Assembly: GCA_945888575.1 (NCBI GenBank)
Contig: CAMDAM010000001.1
Location: forward strand, 1 to 57,074
Direction: 5' to 3'
Origin: Asaia bogorensis
GTDB lineage: Bacteria; Pseudomonadota; Alphaproteobacteria; Acetobacterales; Acetobacteraceae
DNA: 57,074 nucleotides
Under the pieces are notes generated by a model. That model was not told the DNA's origin. It ran no database searches and saw only the letters and a list, made by a program, of their open reading frames with translations. Below are positions 3,301 through 15,786 of the stretch, one piece after another (position 1 is the first letter of the stretch; each line of letters starts with the position of its first letter). Made by a program: the position numbers and the translations under genes.

Positions 3301-5340
3301 CGCCGCCTGTACGACCTCGGCATCACCGCCGGCAAGGTGATCCCCAGCCGCGAGGACCCCTACGACCCCGCCCTGGCCGAAACCCGCATGGCCCCCATGG
3401 TGGCGGCCGATACGCGCTGGTACCTGGAGAACATCGCAACCGACCTCTACGCCAACTATCACCGCTGGCGCCCCAACCTCAGCGTGACCTGGCTGTGGGA
3501 CGAGGTGCGCCGCCGCCAGCGCGAGAACCCGGCCGACCCCACCGTGTTCCACCGCGAGCCCAGCCTTTCCGACCCCGTCTGGATCGCCCGCATCCAGGAG
3601 CGCATCCGCGCCACCGTGCGCCATCTCGGCCCCTATCGCCCGCTGTGGTACGATCTGGCCGACGAGGCGGGGATCGCCGACCTCGCCGCGGCCTGGGATT
3701 TCGACATGGGGGCGCAGTCCCTGGCCGGCTTCCGGACCTGGCTGCGCAGCCAGTACCGCGACCTCGCGGCACTCAACCGGCAATGGGGCAGCAGCTTCGC
3801 CACGTGGGATGCGGTGATGCCGCTGACCACCACGGAGGCGCTGGCCCGGCAGGATCGCAACTGGTCCGCCTGGGCCGACTTCAAGGCCTGGATGGACATC
3901 GCCTTCGCCCGTGCCCTGCGCGCCGGCACCGATGCACTGCACAAGGCCGACCCCACCGCGCTCTCCGGCATCGCCGGCGCGCAGGTGCCGGGTTGGGGCG
4001 GCTACGACTACGGCCTGCTCGTCGGCGCGCTCGATGCGCTGGAGGTCTACGACAATGCCAACAATATGGAGATTGTCCGCTCCATCAGCCCCAGCACGGT
4101 GTTGCTCAATACCAACTTCGCCTCCGGGCCCGGCGAGATTGCCGGCATTTGGCGACAGGTCCTGCTCGGCAGCCGCGGCCTGGTGCTGTGGGATTCAAAT
4201 GCGTCGTTGCTGAACCCCGCCTCGCCGCGCACCACCGGCCTCGCCCCTGTACTGCGAGAACTCACCGGCGGCCTTGGCGCCCAGCTGATTGCCAGCCAGC
4301 CGCACCACGATGGGGTGGCGATCCTGTATTCCCAGGCCAGCTTCCGCACCCAGTGGCTGGAGGAGCAGTTGGCCGTGGGCCCACGCTGGGTGGAACGCGA
4401 TTCCGAGAAGGAATGGTTCTTCACCCCGCCCCATCGCGCCGCCCGCCAGCGTGCCGCCCGGCTGCTTTCCACCCTCGGCGCCCAGCCCCGCTGGCTTACC
4501 TCCGACCTGCTCGCCGGCGGGGCGCTGCGCAAGTCTGGCGTCCGGCTGCTTGTGCTCCCCGAGGTCTCCGCCCTGTCCGACGCGGAGGCGGCCGAAATCC
4601 GCGCCTTCGCCGCGCGCGGTGGCACCGTGCTGATGATGGGCACGCCCGGCCGCTACGACGGCCGCAGCCGCCTGCTGCCACGCCCGCTCCTGGCCAACCT
4701 GGCCCCCGCCCGCGCCATCGCTCGCCTGCCGGAGAACGACGAGGCCGCCCTGCCCGCGCTGGCCGCCCTGCTCGCCCGCGCAGAGACGGCTCCTCTGCTG
4801 CGTATCACCGCTGCCGCCGGCGGCCCCGACCCCAACGTGGAGACCCGCGTGCTGTCCAACGGCCGTGTGCTGCTTGTGGGCCTGCGCCCGCTCACGCAGG
4901 GGCCCACCGATATCGTCTTGACGCTGCCGCAGGGCCACACCGCGCACGACCTGCGCCGCGGCGGCCGGTTGCCGGAGTCGCAGGGCCGCCTGCCGCTGCG
5001 CCTTTCCGGCCCCGATCCCGTGATCCTGGCCCTCACCCCCGCGCGCCTGCCCGCACCCACGATCATGGCCGGGGCGGCCCTGCGCACGGGCAATGTCGCC
5101 GAACTGCGCCTTGGCCTCTCTGGCGCCACACCGGCCGAGGCCACAGCGCTCCGCGTGGAGGTTACCGCGCCCGATGGCACAGCGATGCCGCGCTATGGCG
5201 GCAACGTGGTTCTGCGCGGCGGCCCAGCCACCTGGCGCCTGCCGCTTGCCGCCAACGACCCGGTGGGACTGTGGCAGGTTCGCGTGACCGACATGCTCTC
5301 GGGCGCCAGCGACCGGATTGTGCTGCCGGTCGCGCCGTAA
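310..5340 (+). CDS. HpnN-like RND/MMPL transporter fused in frame to a GH42-like (beta-galactosidase-type) domain
   Basis: One uninterrupted ORF (track 262..5340; ATG at 310, alternative ATG at 274). The N-terminal ~860 aa match hopanoid-associated RND HpnN (..STDTDALFDPALPWRQREIAAAKAFPQFSDLLVAVVEG.., 12-TM MMPL layout). Next comes WKRATGAVLGALLLLGLPLPAGA-DT, an extra hydrophobic, signal-like helix (nt ~2881-2950). The final ~800 aa carry GH42-style motifs (FRTWLRSQYRDLAALNRQWGSSFATWDAV; a trimerisation-domain-like block VAILYSQASF...VRLLVLPEVSALSDAEAAEIRAFAARGGTVLMMG). Confidence 0.75.
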   Translation: MTSFSLPRLLAAIAEYCRTRALHVVLAGVVLAALGAWAAAARLGVSTDTDALFDPALPWRQREIAAAKAFPQFSDLLVAVVEGATPEEADATADALAAKLAADTTHFRFARRPDAAPFLQRHGLLYLDTPDLTALLDQTIDAQPFLGQLASDPSARGLFSTLALVAMGVERGEKLDSFRPALQGFAAALGDAAAGTPTPLSWQRLLGGKLMEMAGPRRLVLAQARLDLGALEPGGAATAALRQAAAGLEHVAAGRATVRVTGQVALADEEFATVAQGALGGVAVSAALVLLWLVLAVRSWRLIVPIVATLWLGLVLTSGFAALAVGTLNLVSVAFAVLFTGIAVDFAIQFCVRYREMRLSSGDPTLALTQTVVSVGPQILLAAVAIAAGFLAFVPTSFRGVAELGLIAGFGMLIALACTLTFLPAMLALLRPRGEAAEIGWAWAARVERKLLRHRVAVAAGFAVLCLLGAALLPRIAFDSDPLHTKDPSTEAMVTLRALMDDPLTSPYSADIMVASPQEAALMMPRLRALPLVAEVVSLPSLVPENQEEKLPLIADAASILGATLAPRSAPAPVTPADLRLAVLTARTEIDRVLPRLAPDDPLRAIAAALATLATAPDERLMQANAALTRFLPRQLDALRRVLEAGPVTLADIPADLAADWRAPDGRIRIQASAKPEARDGAGLQHFVAQIRTVAPQAGGSAVTIVETAGTIVGAFVTAALGALAAIAVLLLVLLRRPLDVALVLGSLLASALLTVPVIVLLPMPLNFANIVALPLLLGVGVSFNIYFVMNRAAGATAFLGTATARAVLFSALTTATAFGSLAASAHPGTASMGALLLWSLGATLLVTFVLLPVVLAWKRATGAVLGALLLLGLPLPAGADTLVPPEGAQQGGPQVRALWRFDAPATGTGTLALEWTDTLGRVVERRRIPLDLRAAREVAIPLDMRRAIAMSNTLAATLELAGQPPRRQEAGFIARPQPGWHDWVAQYWHEADAPSRRRLYDLGITAGKVIPSREDPYDPALAETRMAPMVAADTRWYLENIATDLYANYHRWRPNLSVTWLWDEVRRRQRENPADPTVFHREPSLSDPVWIARIQERIRATVRHLGPYRPLWYDLADEAGIADLAAAWDFDMGAQSLAGFRTWLRSQYRDLAALNRQWGSSFATWDAVMPLTTTEALARQDRNWSAWADFKAWMDIAFARALRAGTDALHKADPTALSGIAGAQVPGWGGYDYGLLVGALDALEVYDNANNMEIVRSISPSTVLLNTNFASGPGEIAGIWRQVLLGSRGLVLWDSNASLLNPASPRTTGLAPVLRELTGGLGAQLIASQPHHDGVAILYSQASFRTQWLEEQLAVGPRWVERDSEKEWFFTPPHRAARQRAARLLSTLGAQPRWLTSDLLAGGALRKSGVRLLVLPEVSALSDAEAAEIRAFAARGGTVLMMGTPGRYDGRSRLLPRPLLANLAPARAIARLPENDEAALPALAALLARAETAPLLRITAAAGGPDPNVETRVLSNGRVLLVGLRPLTQGPTDIVLTLPQGHTAHDLRRGGRLPESQGRLPLRLSGPDPVILALTPARLPAPTIMAGAALRTGNVAELRLGLSGATPAEATALRVEVTAPDGTAMPRYGGNVVLRGGPATWRLPLAANDPVGLWQVRVTDMLSGASDRIVLPVAP

Positions 5341-8645: not shown

Positions 8646-8722
8646 CTAGCACGCTTGACGTTTCCAGCTGGTCGAGCAAACATGATACCGTAATCAAAAT
8701 AAAATAGGAAAGTTCGTCGGCG

Positions 8723-9481
8723 ATGCCTCGAGAACCGAAAACCGTCGATGAGTTGCTTGAAGAGATAACGTGTGAATTGTCGCCAACTGGGCGCGCCGAA
8801 CGCGTGTTGCTGGGAGGATTCACGGGTCTCTATCAGGCCGCAGATAATTGGTGCTGGGCGGCTGCGGCTGCCACGGTTGCGACCTATTATGATCGCGTCA
8901 AGGTTCCCGCAGGAACACCTGTGCCGTCTGTCCCGCGGGCGCAATGCGGCCTGGTCGACGGCGGTTACTGTACCGGTGGACCTGCGTGCGCCAAGCACTT
9001 GGCCGGATATCCGAACTGCAACAGACTTAACGACTACGGTAGAATAGATTTTTCGTGCCATAATCCGGATTTCGACAGACAAGGCTTTCTTAACCGCATG
9101 CTGGCTCGCTTGGGGCGCCTTGAAGTGTCCCTGCCAATGCGGGCATCGCGGAGCCACCACATAACATTGTGGGAAACAGCCCCGGGCACTCAGAAAGTGG
9201 TCCCATCGCGGGATTACATGCTTCAGGCGACGGTGGATGTGGACCAGATCGCACGGCTGTTGAAAGACGGGCGACTTGTGTGCTTCCGATCTAAGCGCGG
9301 TGGGACTCGACACTTCATCATTGTCTACGGCTGCGAAACGTACCCAGATGTGTCGCTGCTTGTATGGGATCCTGCCAAAGGATCGGAGATCATCGAAGCT
9401 GAGCAGTTCCTTCACGAGTTCGGCCCGTTCACCCATATGATTGTAACCCGTGGCGATTGGCAGAAGCAGAATGTCAGTTAA
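8723..9481 (+). CDS. papain-like cysteine peptidase (AvrRpt2/C70- or C39-like), Cys-rich insert
   Basis: 252 aa. Q-x4-NWCWAAAAATV nucleophile motif. A downstream RHFIIVYG His and VWDP Asp lie ~20 residues apart, similar to the Cys-His-Asp spacing of AvrRpt2-type proteases. Five Cys in residues ~75-122 (nine in the whole protein). No signal peptide. Local GC about 47-50%. Confidence 0.65.
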   Translation: MPREPKTVDELLEEITCELSPTGRAERVLLGGFTGLYQAADNWCWAAAAATVATYYDRVKVPAGTPVPSVPRAQCGLVDGGYCTGGPACAKHLAGYPNCNRLNDYGRIDFSCHNPDFDRQGFLNRMLARLGRLEVSLPMRASRSHHITLWETAPGTQKVVPSRDYMLQATVDVDQIARLLKDGRLVCFRSKRGGTRHFIIVYGCETYPDVSLLVWDPAKGSEIIEAEQFLHEFGPFTHMIVTRGDWQKQNVS

Positions 9482-10064
9482 GATATACCCGGAGGATTAT
9501 CCTCCCGAAGCTCTTCAAGCTGCGAAGCGCAAGATAGAGGCGTTGCTGTCCTGGGAGGGGTTGGTTTCTCGGAACCCTGAAGCGGCTACCTTCCTCACAC
9601 TGCCGCACCGCGTTTATTTTTTGCGTTCGCGCGGACTTGCTGGTGTTGGGCCCCTTAGGGCCTCCGTCGACTTCGGTGGCTGGCGCTTTCTTGTCAGCCA
9701 GGAGGCCCAGGCGATTGCCGCTGTCACGACGTGGCAGGGTGATGGCGAATGGCGGGTATCCTCTGTTCGGCCGGGAACCTGGGCATCCGCAACGCGAGCC
9801 GCACTGACCGGGGAAGGTTTGGACGGGGGGCCATATACGCTGGCCTATCTCTGGTGCCGCAGGAAATTTGTGGCAGCCTTGTGGCTGCAAACTGAAAGTG
9901 GACAAGGGGAGAAGGTTATCCCCTTGCCGTATGTTCGCGGACTGACGGCACTGCGCCCAACAACCCCCGACGCATATCTTGAGGCAATGCGTCGCCCTAC
10001 GTCCCACGCTCCGGGTATAGTTGCTGCAGCGCGGGCAGACCGACTCAGCCCGTTAGGTGGATAA
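9471..10064 (+). CDS. hypothetical protein, translationally coupled partner of the cysteine peptidase
   Basis: The ATG at 9471 overlaps the upstream stop by 11 nt (ATGTCAGTTAA); an alternative GTG lies at 9450. 197 aa, with no recognisable motif, signal peptide or TM segment. Confidence 0.55.
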   Translation: MSVKIYPEDYPPEALQAAKRKIEALLSWEGLVSRNPEAATFLTLPHRVYFLRSRGLAGVGPLRASVDFGGWRFLVSQEAQAIAAVTTWQGDGEWRVSSVRPGTWASATRAALTGEGLDGGPYTLAYLWCRRKFVAALWLQTESGQGEKVIPLPYVRGLTALRPTTPDAYLEAMRRPTSHAPGIVAAARADRLSPLGG

Positions 10065-10100
10065 AGAAAGGGCCCATCGGACGGGGTTATCCGATGGGCC
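10061..10100. terminator. hairpin terminator between convergent island genes
   Basis: GGCCCATCGGA-cggggtta-TCCGATGGGCC (11-bp stem, 10071-10100). On the minus strand it is followed by CTTTCTTTAT. A second 9-bp hairpin (10137-10161) sits 7 nt past the PAP2-like stop codon. Confidence 0.6.
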
Positions 10101-10167
10101 AGAGGTGCTTATCAGGCAGTGGGCGACGGATCGAACCCTCCGTCCATCAGGGGGACGGAGGCTCTAT

Positions 10168-11400
10168 CTAATGTCCGCTGCGATCCTTGCTCCGCTGCGA
10201 TAGCGGGGCGTCTCCCTCGGGCAGGCGTGCCCGGTCCGCCTCTTTTGGCGCTGGATAGCTCGCGACCTTCGTGCCGAGGGTCCGCAGGGTCGCTCCGGCC
10301 CTAAGCAACTGATGGGATGGAGACTTTTCATCTGGCAACTTCGCGTCTTCGGCTTTGTCGGGCACATAAACAGGTATGCCATCGCCGTCCTTGTTGCTTA
10401 CCTCCTCCCATTCCTTCCTGGCGCGGTCCAGTATGATGGTAAATGATTTCATACGCAGGAGCACATCCATTACAGTCGGGACAACACTCCAGCTTCCTTC
10501 CTTGTCGGAGGGCCAGTGGACGCCAGCGCGCTCACGATTCACCGGAATCTCCTCCGAGAGAGCCCGCAGAACCTTCGCCATGGCGGGTGCCGCCTCACGC
10601 ACGCAATGTTCGATGAGGTAGGCTTGCAAGGCATGGCCGCTGGGATAGGCCGGATGCGCAGGCGTATCGATCATGGGGGAAATGCCCGGCCAAACCTGTG
10701 CCGGGCGGGGGCGCATGAACTCCGCCTTGAACCGCGCCGCAATCATGCCGGCCACCTGCAGCCCAATCAGCACCAAGCTCCATGTTGCCGGCCTGGTCGC
10801 GGGCGAACAAGCTAGAAGATCAGCATAGTAGGTGGTGAAATCGCCCGCTTGTGCCAGTATCGCACCCTGATGCCGGGGGCCTCGTTCAGTGAGGCGCAGA
10901 TCACGCAAATGCGCCAGTTCCTTCCTCACCGCATCAGGGCTTTGGTCCAGCTTGCCTTTGAGCAGGTCCCGCATCGTATCCCAGGCACAGCGGCCAGTCC
11001 CATCCATCTTGGCAGCTTCAATCGCGAAATCGGTAGCGATCACAGCAGCCTTCAGCAGCGGGTCCCAGCCGTCCTCGGGGAAGGTGGTGTTGACGATCAT
11101 TGGGGCCGAGATAGCGGACTGCCCTGCATGGCGTGGCAGCGCCGCACCGATCAGGGTGGGCCCTCCACGCAGGGAACCGAGCCCACCCGGCACCCAGTAC
11201 CAGCCTTGCGGACGTCCGCCACTCTGACCACCGCTTTGACCACCACTCTGGCCGCCCGATTGCCCGCCGCTCTGGCCGCCATAGGAGGCATCGATCGTAT
11301 CGTCGACCGCATCCCCAATAGCTCCAAGAATCGTATCGGGGAGCCTATCAATCGTCTTTTGTAGTGCTGCGATCGCTTCAATCAGTTTGTCATCAGCCAT
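10168..11400 (-). CDS. PAP2 superfamily protein (acid phosphatase / vanadium-haloperoxidase-like) with N-terminal (GGQS)5 repeat
   Basis: 410 aa carrying the three PAP2 motifs: K-AEFMRP-RP (Kx6RP), PAYPSGHA (PSGH) and NRERAGVHWPSD (Rx5Hx3D). No TM helices or signal peptide are evident. GGGGGGA RBS upstream. Confidence 0.75.
   Translation of the reverse strand: MADDKLIEAIAALQKTIDRLPDTILGAIGDAVDDTIDASYGGQSGGQSGGQSGGQSGGQSGGRPQGWYWVPGGLGSLRGGPTLIGAALPRHAGQSAISAPMIVNTTFPEDGWDPLLKAAVIATDFAIEAAKMDGTGRCAWDTMRDLLKGKLDQSPDAVRKELAHLRDLRLTERGPRHQGAILAQAGDFTTYYADLLACSPATRPATWSLVLIGLQVAGMIAARFKAEFMRPRPAQVWPGISPMIDTPAHPAYPSGHALQAYLIEHCVREAAPAMAKVLRALSEEIPVNRERAGVHWPSDKEGSWSVVPTVMDVLLRMKSFTIILDRARKEWEEVSNKDGDGIPVYVPDKAEDAKLPDEKSPSHQLLRAGATLRTLGTKVASYPAPKEADRARLPEGDAPLSQRSKDRSGH
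11215..11280 (-). repeat. 12-nt in-frame tandem repeat encoding (GGQS)5
   Basis: Five imperfect copies of GGYGGNCARWSN lie inside the PAP2-like CDS. The synonymous differences between copies keep the peptide repeat perfect. Confidence 0.9.
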
Positions 11401-11433
11401 TCATTCCCCCCGCCCTTTCGGGCCATTGAACAT

Positions 11434-13398
11434 TCATTCCGGCAATCCCGCCAGAATCAGATGCCGCCCGTAAGCCTCCCGTCGCCACGCATCACGGAAC
11501 GGGCTGTTCTGGACCACGTCGCGCACGCGCTGGTCCGGTATCTCCCGCATCGCCCGCTCGGCGATCTGGCGGGCCTGTGCCAGGTCCCCGGCCGCCGCCA
11601 GCGAGGCAGCGGTCCAGCGCAGACCCACGCGCAGGTAGGAGGGTTCGGCAATGGCCTTCAGCCCCCATTGGGCCGCGATATCGTATTCACCGGCGGTGTA
11701 GTGGGCCACGCACAGCGTGCTGTAGAAATCGTGCGCGTCGCGGTCGCGAGGTGAAAGCTCCATGGCACGGGTCACGCGCCGGACCGCTTCCTGCGCCTCG
11801 CCGGCATAGGACCAAGTGTAGCTGCTCCACAGCCACATATGCGCCGAGCCGGGCCAAGATTGGTTGCCGCGATCGAACAGCTCCATGGCGCCTTCGATGT
11901 CGCGATGGTGCAAGGCGCGGCGGTGGGCGTGGAACATCAAAGCGCGGCAGTTCTCGGCATCCAGGGCCAAGGCGCGGTTTGCCTCCGCTTCGGTGGCCGC
12001 AACCGCTTGGCGGCGGTCCTGCCGCCACCCCTGGCTGAGCGACAGCGTATGCCAATCGGCCAACAGGGCATGGGCATCGGGATAGTCCGGCTCGGCACGC
12101 ACGATCTCGTCCAGGAGGGTTTTGGCCTGGTCGAAACTCTCTCGTTGCAGAACCTGGAGATGCTCGCGCGCCAGCAGCGCCTTTTCGTAGACGGTGAGGC
12201 TTTCGGGCCGCTTCCCCCGAATGCGCTTCAGCTCCAGCTCCTGCACCCGTGGGGCCAGGGTGTTCACGATCTGCGCCACCAGCCGATCCTGGTCGGCAAA
12301 ATCCAGCGTGGCCGAGGTGTCGTGCGTCCGCGCCCAAACCACCGCGCCGGTGCGGGCATCGGCCAGTTCCGTGGTCAGCCGCAGCACGTCGCCGCGCCGG
12401 CGCATGGACCCGCGCACCACGTAGCGCGCGCCCAGCTCGCGCCCCACCTGGCGCAGGTCAACCTGCGGGTCCCGATAGGTGAGGGAGGAGCCGTGCGAGA
12501 TCACCTGCAGTTCGCGCAGCCCGGCCAGCTGGCACACCGTGTCCACCAGGATGCCGTCGGCGATGTGGCTCGGCACCGCCTCGTCGCCCAGTTGTGCGAA
12601 CGGCAGCACGGCGATCTGCGGTGGCGCACCCACGGGCGTCGGTTCCGTGCGCGGCGGCTCGGGAAGGACAGGGGGATCCATCTCCGCGCGCAGCCGCCGG
12701 GCGATCTCACGCGTCTGCGCACCGGGGTTGATCCCCAGCTCGCGCTTCATCATCTCGGCAATCGCGGCGTAGTGGCGTAGCCCGTCAGCCCGCCGGCCCG
12801 CCGCGCCGCAGGCATCCAGCAGGCGGCAATGGATCTCCTCGCGCAGCGGGTCGATCGCGAACATCCGTTCGGCCGCTTCCAGCGCCGCGGCGGCATCGCC
12901 TGCCGCGGTGCAGAGCTCGCCGATGCGGGCCAGCACCGCCAGCACCTTGCGCTCCAGGTCGGCGCGGCTCGGTACCAGCCAGTCGGCGAAATCCTCCTCC
13001 ACATGCGGGAACCCGGCCAGCAGCGGCCCGGCATAGGCTTGCACCGCCTGGCGCAGCCCAGCGAGATCCTCGGCCAAGGCGTGGCGCTCGAACTCCTCCA
13101 CGTCGGTCGCCACATCCTCGCCCAGCGTCAGCGCCCCATCCTGGGAGACGACAACCTGCCGCCCGCGCAGGGGCCGGCGCAGTGAATAGAGTGCCTCGCG
13201 CAGGCTGCCCTGGATCTGCTTTGGCCCGCTGTTCGGCCACAACAGCTCCGCCACCCGCTCCCGCGCCATCGGCCGGCCACGATCCACCGCCAGCACGGCC
13301 AGCAGGGCGCGCGTTTTGCGGGGCAGCGGCGGGCCCTCCTGGCCGTCCACCCGCAGCCCGAAGCCGCCGAGAAGGTTGAGACGAACGCCTGTCATCAC
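11434..13398 (-). CDS. SARP/BTAD-family transcriptional regulator with TolB-like and TPR domains
   Basis: 654 aa. N-terminal OmpR-type winged helix (LNLLGGFGLRVDG..RKTRALLAVLAV..LWP), then a BTAD region, a TolB-N-like block (IAVLPFAQLGDE...YVVRGSMRRRGDVLRLTTELADARTGAVVW) and C-terminal TPR-like repeats. Confidence 0.8.
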   Translation of the reverse strand: MMTGVRLNLLGGFGLRVDGQEGPPLPRKTRALLAVLAVDRGRPMARERVAELLWPNSGPKQIQGSLREALYSLRRPLRGRQVVVSQDGALTLGEDVATDVEEFERHALAEDLAGLRQAVQAYAGPLLAGFPHVEEDFADWLVPSRADLERKVLAVLARIGELCTAAGDAAAALEAAERMFAIDPLREEIHCRLLDACGAAGRRADGLRHYAAIAEMMKRELGINPGAQTREIARRLRAEMDPPVLPEPPRTEPTPVGAPPQIAVLPFAQLGDEAVPSHIADGILVDTVCQLAGLRELQVISHGSSLTYRDPQVDLRQVGRELGARYVVRGSMRRRGDVLRLTTELADARTGAVVWARTHDTSATLDFADQDRLVAQIVNTLAPRVQELELKRIRGKRPESLTVYEKALLAREHLQVLQRESFDQAKTLLDEIVRAEPDYPDAHALLADWHTLSLSQGWRQDRRQAVAATEAEANRALALDAENCRALMFHAHRRALHHRDIEGAMELFDRGNQSWPGSAHMWLWSSYTWSYAGEAQEAVRRVTRAMELSPRDRDAHDFYSTLCVAHYTAGEYDIAAQWGLKAIAEPSYLRVGLRWTAASLAAAGDLAQARQIAERAMREIPDQRVRDVVQNSPFRDAWRREAYGRHLILAGLPE

Positions 13399-13528: not shown

Positions 13529-14608
13529 ATGGCGTTGCGCTCCGATGCCGTGGCCGGCGCAGTCCCGCGCCGCTCAGCCGGAGATGCCGCCGTGTCAGTC
13601 ACCGCCCCCCCTGCACCGTCCGTGGGCCTGCCCGCCGTCCCCGTGGCGTTGCGTCCGATGCACGAGCCGGCGTTGCACGACCCTGTCGGCCTGCTCGATT
13701 CCACCCGCGACCGCATCCTGGCCGGCGGAGACATCGCCCAGGCGGTGGATATCCTCAGCGACGGGCTGTGGTGGATGCGCGCCGGCTTGCCGGAAGACGA
13801 GTGGAAGCAGGTGATCGCCCTGGTGCGCGCCCATCCGCTGATGGGGCTGATGCACGAGAACCCCTTCACCCGCCGCGCCTTCGTCAAGCCCCGCGGCTAT
13901 GCCGGCGATGCCCCGCTGATCGACCTGCTCTACTACGGCCAGGCCGCCGCCGAGGCGAAGGACGCCTCGCCCCTTGGCCTTGCCCTGCTGGCACGCGATA
14001 CCGGCGCGCCCGCCGCCGCCGCGGTGCGCGAACGGCGGGATTTCATGGCCGAGCTGATCGACCATGTGGCGGATGCCACGCCCATGCCCAGCATCCTCGC
14101 CGCCGCCTGCGGGCACCTGCGCGAGGGGCTGGTTTCCACCGCCGTGCAGCAGCACCGCATCGGCCGGCTGGTGGCGCTGGACCAGGATGCGGATTCGCTG
14201 GCCGTTGTCGGCAAGTCCTTCGGCATCAAGGGCGCGGAGATGGTCAACCGCAGCATCAAGGCGGTGCTGGACGGCAGCTTGAAGCCGGGCAGCTTCGACA
14301 TGGTCTATGCCGCCGGGCTCTACGACTATCTCGGCCAGCGCCTGGCCAGCGCGCTCACCGCCGCGTTCTTCGGGCTGCTGAAGCCGGGCGGGCGGCTGGT
14401 GATCGGCAACTTCGCGCGTGGCATCTACGACGCCGCCTACATGGAGGCGATCGGCGACTGGTTCCTGATCTACCGCGACGCCGCCGAAATGCAGGACCTG
14501 GCCAGCGGGATCGATGCGCGCGAAGTGGCGCTGAAGCGCGTCTATACCCGCCAGAGCCCGGACATCTTCTACCTGGAACTGCGCCGCCGCGGCACGCTCG
14601 CGGCCTGA
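13529..14608 (+). CDS. class I SAM-dependent methyltransferase (PhcB / 3-hydroxy fatty acid methyl ester synthase-like family)
   Basis: Conserved KPRGYAGDAPLIDLLY block, SAM motif I-like ILAAACGHLREG, and an acidic loop DMVYAAGLYDYL. The start is uncertain (ATG at 13529 or 13658). The track start at 13316 would overlap the divergent regulator. Confidence 0.6.
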   Translation: MALRSDAVAGAVPRRSAGDAAVSVTAPPAPSVGLPAVPVALRPMHEPALHDPVGLLDSTRDRILAGGDIAQAVDILSDGLWWMRAGLPEDEWKQVIALVRAHPLMGLMHENPFTRRAFVKPRGYAGDAPLIDLLYYGQAAAEAKDASPLGLALLARDTGAPAAAAVRERRDFMAELIDHVADATPMPSILAAACGHLREGLVSTAVQQHRIGRLVALDQDADSLAVVGKSFGIKGAEMVNRSIKAVLDGSLKPGSFDMVYAAGLYDYLGQRLASALTAAFFGLLKPGGRLVIGNFARGIYDAAYMEAIGDWFLIYRDAAEMQDLASGIDAREVALKRVYTRQSPDIFYLELRRRGTLAA

Positions 14609-14628: not shown

Positions 14629-15786
14629 ATGATGAGCGACATGCGCATGCCGCGCGCCGCGCCACCGCACCGGGGCCTGCCCAGCGGCGGCGGGCGCACG
14701 GTGCTGGGGTTGGCGGGGCCCCTCGCCGCCCCGGTTCGGCGGCCACGGCCGCAGCTGGCCGCGCAGGGGCTGGAGATCGAGGGCCCGGTGCCGATCCCGG
14801 GCGAGTACCGCCCGGGCACGGCTGGCTTCCGCTACTGGGCGGTGGCCGAGGCACTGGAACGCGGCGCGGCGCTGTGGCGCGCGGCGGCCGAGTTCCCCTG
14901 GGCCTGGGCCGGCGGCCGGCTGCGCGTTCAGCTCATCGGCGGCACGGATGCGGTGTGCGAACGGGGGTGGCTGCGGCTCGGGGCCGGCGCGCCGCACGCA
15001 GCGGCAATGCGCGCCCTGGGCCACGCGGTGCTGGACGGGCTGCGCCCGGCCCTGTGGCATGTGGCGGCGCCGGATGTCGCCAGCTTCCACGCCGGTTTTG
15101 CCGACGCCGTGGCGATGCTGGCAACGCTAGAGATCTCAGGCACGGCAGACGTCGTTCCACAGGCCACCACGCCGTTCGGCCGGGCCTTCGCGGAGGTGCT
15201 GGTGGTGCTGGCACAGTCCGGCCCGGCCGCGCGGCGCCGGCCCGATCCGCGGCTGCTGGCGCTGCGCGGCGCCCGCCTGCTGGCCGATGCAACCCGCCGC
15301 GCCCCCGTGGCGCCCGATTTCACCGCCCAGGTCGCCGCCGAGATGGCCCTCGCCGCCACGGTGCAGGAAGGCCCGCTGGTCGCCCTACAGCTGCGAGACC
15401 TGTTCGCCCGCCACTTCCTGCTGGCCCGCAGCCCGGTGCTGGAAGCCTACGACCCCCATTTGGCGGAAGACGGCACGGAGCTGCCGCTGCCGGCGTGCTC
15501 CCTGCCCTGGGTCGCCACCGATGCCGCCCCCTTGGGCCTGGACCTGCCGCTGCTCCTTTGCCCCGCCACGCAGCCGCCGCTGGTGGCGCCCTCGGCCGAC
15601 GCCCCTGCCCCGGCGGCTGCCGCCCAAGGCTTCGCACAGAGCCTGTTCGCATCCGGCATGGTCGAAAAGCCGCGCATCGGGCGGCTGCAGCGCCGCGCAC
15701 CTGGCACCAACGCGCTGGCCACGCACCTGCTGCTGGATGACGGCCGCACGCTGCGCCTGGTGCGGGAGCGTTTCGTGGCCGGATAG
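14629..15786 (+). CDS. hypothetical protein, possible degenerate thermolysin-like (gluzincin) fold
   Basis: ATG at 14629 with a GGGGGA RBS, 20 nt after the methyltransferase stop. The segment MRALGHAVLDG-x17-SFHAGFADAVA parallels HExxH-x19-NExFSD of the M4 family, but the first His and the Glu are replaced (RALGH). Confidence 0.5.
   Translation: MMSDMRMPRAAPPHRGLPSGGGRTVLGLAGPLAAPVRRPRPQLAAQGLEIEGPVPIPGEYRPGTAGFRYWAVAEALERGAALWRAAAEFPWAWAGGRLRVQLIGGTDAVCERGWLRLGAGAPHAAAMRALGHAVLDGLRPALWHVAAPDVASFHAGFADAVAMLATLEISGTADVVPQATTPFGRAFAEVLVVLAQSGPAARRRPDPRLLALRGARLLADATRRAPVAPDFTAQVAAEMALAATVQEGPLVALQLRDLFARHFLLARSPVLEAYDPHLAEDGTELPLPACSLPWVATDAAPLGLDLPLLLCPATQPPLVAPSADAPAPAAAAQGFAQSLFASGMVEKPRIGRLQRRAPGTNALATHLLLDDGRTLRLVRERFVAG

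Follow-up and report, generated by a model that had tools for sequence, protein, structure and literature searches.

A candidate protease toxin and immunity gene pair at a hypervariable chromosomal locus of Asaia bogorensis

A 57,074-nucleotide (nt) stretch of DNA from Asaia bogorensis (contig CAMDAM010000001.1, positions 1 to 57,074; hereafter the window) contains two overlapping open reading frames (ORFs), one for a predicted papain-like cysteine peptidase of C70/C39 type (ORF A) and the other for a partner protein (ORF B). Relatives of the two genes occur together in many bacteria, at times on plasmids, and some of the peptidases are fused to lectin modules known from bacteriocins. In Acetobacteraceae the pair is part of a cassette whose sequence differs greatly from genome to genome. 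The interpretation favoured here, tentatively and with somewhat less than even confidence, is that the pair consists of a protease toxin, or bacteriocin-like enzyme, and a co-translated cytoplasmic inhibitor or immunity protein, which together form an autonomous, mobile and strain-variable module. The features on which this rests are as follows.

8723–9481, + strand: ORF A, C70/C39-type papain-like cysteine peptidase, 252 amino acids (predicted from PF12385, PF03412 and conserved residues)
9471–10064, + strand: ORF B, partner protein, 197 amino acids, isoelectric point 9.7, from a family of approximately 200-amino-acid proteins without annotation
9471–9481, + strand: overlap of ORF A and ORF B, 11 nt (read from the sequence)
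8650–11490, no strand assigned: hypervariable cassette with low G+C content at third codon positions (GC3), comprising the peptidase, the partner and a PAP2-like gene (from identity bins against the syntenic locus L001, and GC3)

ORF A and ORF B are real genes, because a search of 5.8 billion proteins finds about 10–17 close homologues of each, at E values of 1e-52 to 1e-24, and the close homologues of the two lie next to each other on shared contigs. The ORF A stop codon, TAA, is at 9479–9481 and the ORF B start codon is the ATG at 9471, which is preferred over an upstream GTG at 9450 as it agrees with the N-termini of 10 homologues. An overlap of 11 nt is a usual signature of translational coupling, and coupling is thus the probable arrangement here. 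Homologous loci of related Acetobacteraceae have peptidase/partner overlaps of 4–7 nt, and the true gaps in soil relatives are −4 to +33 nt. An earlier note on this DNA described a 252-amino-acid ORF with the motifs Q-AADNWCWAAA, GTRHFIIVYG and LLVWDP, with the His and Asp some 20 residues apart, followed by a 197-amino-acid ORF that overlaps it by 11 nt. All of these motifs are found in ORF A, H197 and D216 are 19 residues apart, and the overlap falls at 9471–9481. The peptidase was also said to have no signal peptide, and neither a signal peptide nor a transmembrane segment is visible in the ORF A sequence or its hydropathy profile.

The family assignment of ORF A is sound, to judge by profile score and predicted catalytic residues. 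Peptidase_C70 (PF12385), one of the Pfam profiles proposed earlier as a check, matches ORF A with 24.3 bits, above the gathering score of 19, with alignment to residues 38–70 only; Peptidase_C39 (PF03412) matches the His/Asp half, residues 185–234, with 21.0 bits, which is below the cut-off of 22. Relatives that are linked to a partner gene align to the whole of the C70 model, e.g. L019 (loci of relatives are designated by L and a number) with 45 bits over positions 7–129 of 141. A 10-sequence alignment of the peptidase family shows invariant Q38, W43-C44-W45, C75, C99, H197 and D216. In a wider set of 58 unique, more distant, partner-linked sequences, Q38, C44 and C75 are present in 58/58, C99 in 57/58, H197 in 56/56 and D216 in 56/58, and the W43-C44-W45 triplet is again invariant. 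Q38, C44, H197 and D216 are the putative catalytic residues. A hypervariable insert extends over approximately residues 57–170 in the 10-sequence alignment. It had been described as cysteine-rich, and this is confirmed; apart from the conserved C75 and C99, its cysteines are allele-specific.

In a low-confidence AlphaFold model of ORF A, C44 is in a helix (residues 37–54), and H197 and D216 are on strands. Foldseek searches with this model (mean predicted local distance difference test score, pLDDT, 52) give top matches that are all papain-like and all weak, with E values of 0.03–0.3 and a template modelling (TM) score of about 0.2. These include the C39 domain of PCAT1, the papain-like protease toxin/immunity pair 9l5u, a CdiA-CT toxin, Tse1 and GtgE. 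A profile made from the peptidase alignment has no match among PDB sequences. The papain-like C70/C39 arrangement suggested in the earlier note is thus borne out by the Pfam C70 score and by conservation of the Gln, Cys, His and Asp residues, and the structural matches are of the same type, albeit weak.

Two other functions of ORF A were considered and set aside. One is that of a C39 leader peptidase, as neither an ABC transporter nor a small gene for a double-glycine precursor is nearby; ORF A stands alone, and no ABC transporter is encoded within 10 kb of it or of its syntenic counterparts. The other is that of a peptidoglycan hydrolase (NlpC/P60 or Tse1-like). Foldseek matches to Tse1 are weaker than those to C39 and toxin domains, and the partner has no signal peptide, which a periplasmic immunity protein would need. 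A separate observation concerns the N-termini of stand-alone C70 proteins. A motif of approximate sequence (D/E)x(S/T)R(V/I)P(L/I) lies 30–45 residues before the catalytic Gln in L017, L019, L023, L029, L038, L051, L069 and L083, and is not obvious in ORF A. It could serve as a signal for export or recognition, or represent a pro-peptide.

Pairing of the two genes is a property of the family. A metagenome scan with a sub-alignment of the partner found 78 loci, apparently mostly from soil, and together with L017 and L018 there are 81 partner hits in 80 loci. Of these hits, 59 have at least 650 nt of upstream sequence, and in 56 of the 59 a C70-type ORF precedes the partner in the same orientation. 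In 40 of these 56 the called ORFs are within −60 to +200 nt of one another; most of the larger negative gaps are an artefact of calling partner ORFs from the longest possible start. As for the exceptions, the C70 gene of L054 is cut by the contig edge, and L094 and L095 are decayed remnants, with a truncated partner of 127 amino acids (4884–5267) and no C70 gene. Every intact partner homologue in these loci for which enough upstream sequence is available lies behind a C70 gene of the same orientation. In L091 (82–657) and L092 (352–1113), an in-frame deletion has left a fusion of two halves, the N-terminal one of the C70 protein, with the catalytic Cys, and the C-terminal one of the partner.

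The pair is independent of its neighbours. In 51 non-redundant loci, no neighbouring gene recurs in more than two, and the 150 largest neighbouring ORFs represent 111 different Pfam families, with only two integrases. The pair stands alone in genomes of Chloroflexota. It is found on plasmid pRlvC of Rhizobium leguminosarum UPM791 (L098; proteins WP_080646131.1 and WP_131704933.1) and on a plasmid of Nocardia sp. NBC_01377 (L097), where mobC and mobF flank it and a Pycsar effector gene is nearby. Both plasmid records have the upstream gene annotated as 'papain-like cysteine protease family protein' and the partner as 'hypothetical protein'. The Nocardia partner is annotated as a coding sequence of 121 amino acids, apparently too short, as the tblastn match extends over approximately 185. 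ORF B itself has no match on a plasmid, and a collection of 50,697 phage records has no homologue. Independence from neighbours shows that the pair is an autonomous module, and its presence on plasmids indicates horizontal mobility.

A further signature comes from domain fusions. The C70 protein of L048 has an N-terminal tandem B-lectin region that matches the NCBIfam model 'putidacin L1 family lectin-like bacteriocin' with an E value of 5.8e-63 and Pfam B_lectin with 6e-22. By inspection, B-lectin repeats are also present on the C70 proteins of L049, L062, L064 and L076. A partner gene follows the B-lectin-fused C70 gene in L048, L049, L062 and L064. A second kind of fusion is found in L050, where the repeat region matches the propeller lectin CV39L of the PLL family (6gxs, E 5e-7). 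Multi-blade repeats of the type 'LDVFvvGtDGgiYtaaWD' are seen on C70 proteins of L020–L022, L037, L040, L050, L054, L082 and L089, in all but L050 by inspection. The propeller repeats are N- or C-terminal to the peptidase, as L021/L040 and L037/L050/L082 show. The C70 protein of L034 has a weak match to an AbfB/ricin-type trefoil. Other repeat types are seen on the C70 proteins of L057 and L074.

No signal peptide is evident at those N-termini of C70 relatives that were inspected. LlpA and S-type bacteriocins also have no Sec signals, albusin B consists of a B-lectin domain joined to a peptidase, and modular bacteriocins are co-expressed with their immunity proteins (PMC6240691). A full-text search that combined 'lectin-like bacteriocin' with 'cysteine protease' found no description of a C70-lectin chimera with a partner gene.

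Relatives of ORF B are numerous. Among 1.84 billion cluster representatives (clusters at 50% identity), a profile search finds 595 at E<=1e-3; nearly all are 190–210 amino acids in length, and those looked up are labelled hypothetical. Neither the single sequence nor a 129-sequence profile matches anything in Pfam, NCBIfam, PADLOC or the PDB sequences, in keeping with the first impression that the partner has no recognizable motif. Near-invariant residues of the family are P45, H46, W71, R72, G102, W138 and D147. From a deep alignment, AlphaFold predicts the ORF B structure with a pLDDT of 90 and a predicted TM score of 0.84; the model has one N-terminal helix, about eight strands and further short helices. 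Foldseek, which had been proposed as a check for both proteins and gave the weak papain-like matches of ORF A, finds no analogue of ORF B in PDB and BFVD (best probability <=0.35, TM <0.25). A cystatin-like or staphostatin-like inhibitor fold was considered for ORF B and is not supported by these searches.

Two fused forms of the partner, P0109 and P0152, point to its location. In both, the partner domain precedes a transmembrane helix and no signal peptide is seen, an arrangement that places the domain in the cytoplasm. By extension, this implies that the partner would reside where a factor for self-protection would act.

The same properties could be those of an intracellular toxin–antitoxin or abortive-infection module, in which the partner holds the protease in check until phage infection or stress frees it to cleave host or phage proteins. 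Neither protein has a signal peptide, the two genes form an autonomous module found in variable contexts and with decayed copies, one plasmid copy is beside a Pycsar effector gene, and strain variability together with atypical composition is typical of defence islands. We nevertheless consider such a module improbable. PADLOC-DB 2.0 has no match for the peptidase, the partner or the PAP2-like protein, and a single marginal one (E 0.0099) for a regulator encoded nearby; the phage records are devoid of homologues, and no other defence genes recur near the relatives. The three kinds of lectin fusion and the invariant C75/C99 pair fit extracellular action better. Type II antitoxins are typically small, DNA-binding proteins that autoregulate their operon and are usually encoded first. 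The partner, unlike these, is encoded second, has 197 amino acids and belongs to no detectable DNA-binding family.

Evidence for strain variability, which is part of the proposed protease toxin and immunity module, comes from comparison of the locus between genomes. The close homologues are all from metagenome-assembled genomes of freshwater Acetobacteraceae or Rhodospirillales, two of them apparently of the Lake Mendota series. All of them share one gene order, which on contigs that are long enough is amidase (−), epimerase (+), C70 (+), partner (+), PAP2-like (−), BTAD-TPR (−), methyltransferase-like (+), a gene of about 380 amino acids (+) and MlrC (−). Protein identities between the window and L001 are 98% for the amidase, 96% for the epimerase, 97% for the methyltransferase-like protein and 96% for MlrC, as against 42% for C70, 48% for the partner, 61% for the PAP2-like protein and 78% for BTAD-TPR.

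The left edge of the cassette is sharp and comes directly after the epimerase stop codon. Up to that codon nucleotide identity to L001 is 91–97% (bins of 300 columns); it is 60% in the boundary bin, and from the boundary through 11.5 kb it is 30–77%. On the other side the change is gradual: identity in the regulator gene rises from 67–71% in the 3′ part, which encodes the TPR repeats, to 92% in the 5′ part, which encodes the DNA-binding domain. Over seven loci, protein identities are 85–97% for the epimerase and 86–100% for the methyltransferase-like protein, compared with 40–57% for C70, 37–65% for the partner, 57–70% for the PAP2-like protein and 72–81% for BTAD-TPR, the last four ranges being given without the near-identical pair L001/L003. 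Flanking proteins overall are 85–98% identical between genomes, and the divergence of the alleles does not follow that of the flanks.

Base composition also sets the cassette apart. The window is approximately 70% G+C, and this falls to 57–63% at 8.7–11.4 kb. GC3 is 0.61 in ORF A, 0.58 in ORF B and 0.66 in the PAP2-like gene, compared with 0.84–0.91 in neighbouring genes. Other alleles of the cassette have GC3 values of 0.71–0.92, above that of the window allele, whose lower GC3 suggests that it may be a more recent import.

The L001 and L003 alleles are mosaic. When L001 10001–12500 is compared with L003 1189–3718, the C70 gene has no differences and the BTAD and methyltransferase-like genes have almost none, whereas about 80 differences are found over the partner and PAP2-like genes. 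Because of this mosaic, recombination breakpoints can be placed inside the cassette, between peptidase and partner. Judged from these alignments, the cassette is hypervariable, recombines and keeps to one site on the chromosome.

The gradient of divergence along the BTAD-TPR regulator may reflect either hitch-hiking with the cassette or co-evolution of a sensor. A self/non-self or pherotype signalling locus similar to agr or comQXP was also considered, where the peptidase would process a variable product that is sensed by the co-diverging TPR part. The agrBDC and comQXP loci show a comparable pattern of polymorphism, and here too the hypervariable block covers the peptidase, the partner and the TPR end of the regulator, beside sharply conserved flanks. 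Such a locus is nonetheless very unlikely, the least probable of the explanations weighed here. No small gene for a precursor peptide was identified, the partner is a folded protein of 197 amino acids, most members of the family have no regulator adjacent to them, and hitch-hiking can account for the gradient in the regulator.

The pair in Acetobacteraceae is embedded in a larger conserved gene cluster. The earlier note saw the pair only; its description of the two ORFs is confirmed and is to be extended by a PAP2-like phosphatase homologue and a BTAD-TPR regulator. The additional features are listed here.

10071–10100, − strand: G+C-rich hairpin of 12 bp followed by a T tract, between convergent operons (terminator scan)
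10168–11400, − strand: PAP2-like homologue of class A acid phosphatases, 410 amino acids (Pfam PAP2 and PDB matches)
11216–11280, − strand: 12-nt tandem repeat, 5.4 copies, encoding GGQS repeats (Tandem Repeats Finder)
11434–13398, − strand: BTAD (SARP-type) plus TPR regulator, 654 amino acids (Pfam BTAD, E 3e-20; TPR_19; TPR_14)
13622–14608, + strand: methyltransferase-like gene, divergent from the regulator (weak Methyltransf_11/25 matches)
approximately 14629–15786, + strand: gene of about 385 amino acids with no family match, divergent from the regulator

The hairpin at 10071–10100 is likely the terminator of the BTAD/PAP2-like operon and is possibly bidirectional; the RNA fold z-score for 10055–10175 is −3.4. 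There is a second strong hairpin at 10137–10161, and the T tract of the first overlaps the partner stop codon. The PAP2-like protein matches Pfam PAP2 with an E value of 2.4e-5 and 24.5 bits, below the gathering score of 27.2, and acid phosphatases in PDB with an E value of 1e-11. By inspection of the sequence, the motifs KxxxxxxRP, PSGH and R(x5)H(x3)D of this protein seem to be intact. The protein has no signal peptide; it starts with an amphipathic helix, followed by a (GGQS)5 repeat, and ends in a basic tail that is variable. The variable tail retains a basic 'R.R...APLS.RS' motif. An N-terminal Gly repeat is present in every PAP2-like homologue, although the unit changes (GGQS, GGQN, GQDG or GGGS) and the copy number varies between alleles from 4 to 9 (8-homologue alignment).

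A gap of 33 nt separates the PAP2-like gene from the BTAD-TPR gene, which precedes it in the same orientation and is retained in all related loci whose contig reaches that far. The methyltransferase-like and 385-amino-acid genes are here conserved like the flanks, with identities of 97% and 88%. The six-gene cluster recurs in a second lineage with different flanks, where the counterparts of these two genes, alike in size and order, encode a Methyltransf_25-like protein of 330 amino acids and an unannotated protein of 317 amino acids.

This cluster raises the question of whether the peptidase serves in a processing or modification system that is directed at a cellular substrate and is under control of the BTAD-TPR regulator. 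The partner would be an adaptor, a chaperone or a subunit that presents the substrate, and the client in this locus would be the PAP2-like protein. ORF A could then be a peptidase, or an acyl- or peptidyl-transferase of C39/C70/BtrH type. C70, PAP2-like and BTAD-TPR genes are found together in every Acetobacteraceae locus and in the second lineage. A C70 gene and a PAP2-like gene are also together in L077, L087 and L083; the last has a BTAD gene as well, in the order BTAD, PAP2, C70, partner on one strand. In L010–L012 (839–4585) a distant C70 protein (197 amino acids, 28% identity, also matching Peptidase_C39_2) has no partner and is accompanied by a BTAD-TPR regulator and by a PAP2-like gene that runs convergently and encodes a Gly repeat; this is the sole intact C70 gene without a partner found in the analysis. 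The partner's near-invariant H46, R72 and D147 are also consistent with a role in processing. In addition, the Gly repeat of the PAP2-like protein, always kept though its unit varies, resembles the Gly-Gly sites cut by C39-type enzymes. C39 enzymes cut off double-glycine leaders, and a transferase, BtrH, is related to them (PMC10318531); a client relationship between peptidase and PAP2-like protein is therefore conceivable.

On balance, however, a processing system appears rather unlikely, although it ranks above the other alternatives. Among the 51 non-redundant soil loci, a PAP2-like gene is near the pair in just three, and a BTAD gene in one of those, so in most genomes the pair works without either. 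In L077 and L083 the Gly repeat starts at residue 3, and cleavage would remove almost nothing. Furthermore, a housekeeping role predicts neither 40–57% identity beside flanks of 96–98% nor fusion to bacteriocin lectins.

We return to the protease toxin with its inhibitor or immunity protein. In this scheme ORF A would be an active C70/C39-type papain-like cysteine peptidase, ORF B would be its dedicated cytoplasmic binding partner, and translational coupling would ensure that ORF B is made in step with ORF A. Most likely ORF B would block the protease inside the producer, either as an immunity protein or as a cognate inhibitor. The pair would then act as a strain-variable antagonism module of bacteriocin or polymorphic-toxin type, with the protease leaving the cell, possibly by lysis, as has been proposed for the signal-less LlpA and S-type bacteriocins. 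We infer the toxicity of the protease, its binding and inhibition by the partner, its exit from the cell and its target. Two properties expected of toxin–immunity systems are seen directly: a cognate downstream gene with conserved pairing, and strong allelic diversification.

Several findings weigh against this scheme. ORF A is free of delivery and receptor-binding domains, and the annotated parts of the window contain neither a secretion system nor a lysis gene. A search for T6SS and T1SS genes (type VI and type I secretion systems) had been proposed as a check, and its outcome is negative: type I, V, VI and VII secretion system genes are absent within ±10 kb (as annotated with Pfam in the syntenic L001) and from the 10 largest other ORFs of the window, and none was found near the 51 relatives, whose 150 largest neighbouring ORFs include no secretion system. 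Mobile-element genes are likewise absent from the same ±10 kb and 10 ORFs, which hold ordinary chromosomal and housekeeping genes, those for DnaX, LeuRS, CheA and Kup among them. Searches of Pfam, NCBIfam, PADLOC and PDB sequences, and Foldseek searches of PDB and BFVD, link the partner to no known immunity family or fold, and its near-invariant His, Arg and Asp could equally mark an enzyme or an adaptor. The AlphaFold model of ORF A, made from the 10-sequence alignment, is poor because that alignment is shallow, and its first 120 residues have pLDDT values below 50. The partner-less C70 gene of L010–L012 is another point, as is the PAP2-like gene beside the pair in L077, L083 and L087, a link that toxin and immunity functions leave unexplained. 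Lastly, the ratio of nonsynonymous to synonymous substitution rates (dN/dS) between L001 and L003, the sole computable pair as other alleles are too diverged, is 0.34 for the partner (dS 0.10) and 0.14 for the epimerase, and the partner value points to relaxed rather than positive selection.

The toxin/effector–immunity pair proposed in the earlier note thus fares unevenly: conserved pairing, autonomy, hypervariability and the bacteriocin fusions agree with it, but no secretion system or delivery domain is found in the window, and the partner matches no known immunity family.

Comparison with known systems helps to place the pair. ORF A resembles the C70 proteins AvrRpt2 and EvpQ, as well as C39 and C39_2 peptidases, in that a catalytic helix with Gln...Cys-Trp is followed by His and Asp on C-terminal strands. 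We know of no dedicated partner gene for AvrRpt2 or EvpQ; the ORF A family, in contrast, always has one downstream. AvrRpt2 is secreted through the type III secretion system, and EvpQ is a C70-type effector secreted through the T6SS (PMC7991086), whereas ORF A has no secretion or host-targeting context and carries a hypervariable insert of about 110 residues. ORF A differs from C39 domains in that it is not fused to an ABC transporter.

Cpe1 is said to be a C-terminal toxin domain of about 140 amino acids, found in polymorphic toxins delivered by contact-dependent inhibition systems or the T6SS, and to target GyrB/ParE. Cpe1 and Cpi1 are an established papain-like cysteine protease toxin and its immunity protein (PMC12136450). 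The likeness to Cpe1/Cpi1 (9l5u) consists of a papain-like protease, a cognate downstream protein and strain polymorphism, and 9l5u is among the top Foldseek matches of ORF A. The structural match is weak (E 0.08), though, there is no match at the sequence level, and ORF A stands alone without a delivery domain.

With LlpA/putidacin L1, albusin B and S-type pyocins, the C70 relatives share the tandem B-lectin module, the lack of a Sec signal and a co-expressed downstream gene. ORF A, however, has no lectin or receptor-binding domain, and LlpA itself has no toxin–immunity module. A further comparison is with staphopain–staphostatin and SpeB–Spi, where a gene for a papain-like protease is followed in the same operon by one whose cytoplasmic product shields the producing cell against premature protease activity; the order of protease gene and partner gene is the same here. 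Staphopains carry signal and pro-peptides, and staphostatins are beta-barrels of about 110 amino acids, whereas ORF A has no signal peptide and its partner has 197 amino acids and a fold that matches nothing in PDB. By analogy, the pair may resemble Cpe1/Cpi1, modular bacteriocin units and staphopain/staphostatin operons in the way it works, yet it is a member of none of these groups.

It is tempting to go further and to view C70 plus the approximately 200-amino-acid partner as a large unannotated class of protease bacteriocin/immunity modules, with an immunity fold that has no solved analogue, and which in Acetobacteraceae became a strain-discrimination locus with the PAP2-like protein as co-effector or client. 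This wider view is possible but doubtful. The warhead would be used alone in some cases, on LlpA-type or propeller lectin modules in others, or together with a Gly-repeat PAP2 protein and a SARP-TPR regulator.

If the pair is indeed a protease toxin with its immunity protein, it would represent a widespread family of protease-based antagonism and a new immunity or inhibitor fold, and approximately 600 'hypothetical' sequence clusters would gain an annotation. It would also mean that recombination has joined a protease warhead to the targeting module of lectin-like bacteriocins, which are thought to kill without a toxin–immunity unit. In addition, an inhibitor specific for C70/C39-type peptidases would be a useful reagent. 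The copies in cultured R. leguminosarum UPM791 (pRlvC) and Nocardia sp. NBC_01377 make the hypothesis directly testable. The Acetobacteraceae locus, for its part, offers, in the Lake Mendota genomes, a natural case of allelic diversity that has long persisted at one site on the chromosome, and the sampling dates of that series suit a study of balancing selection in the wild.

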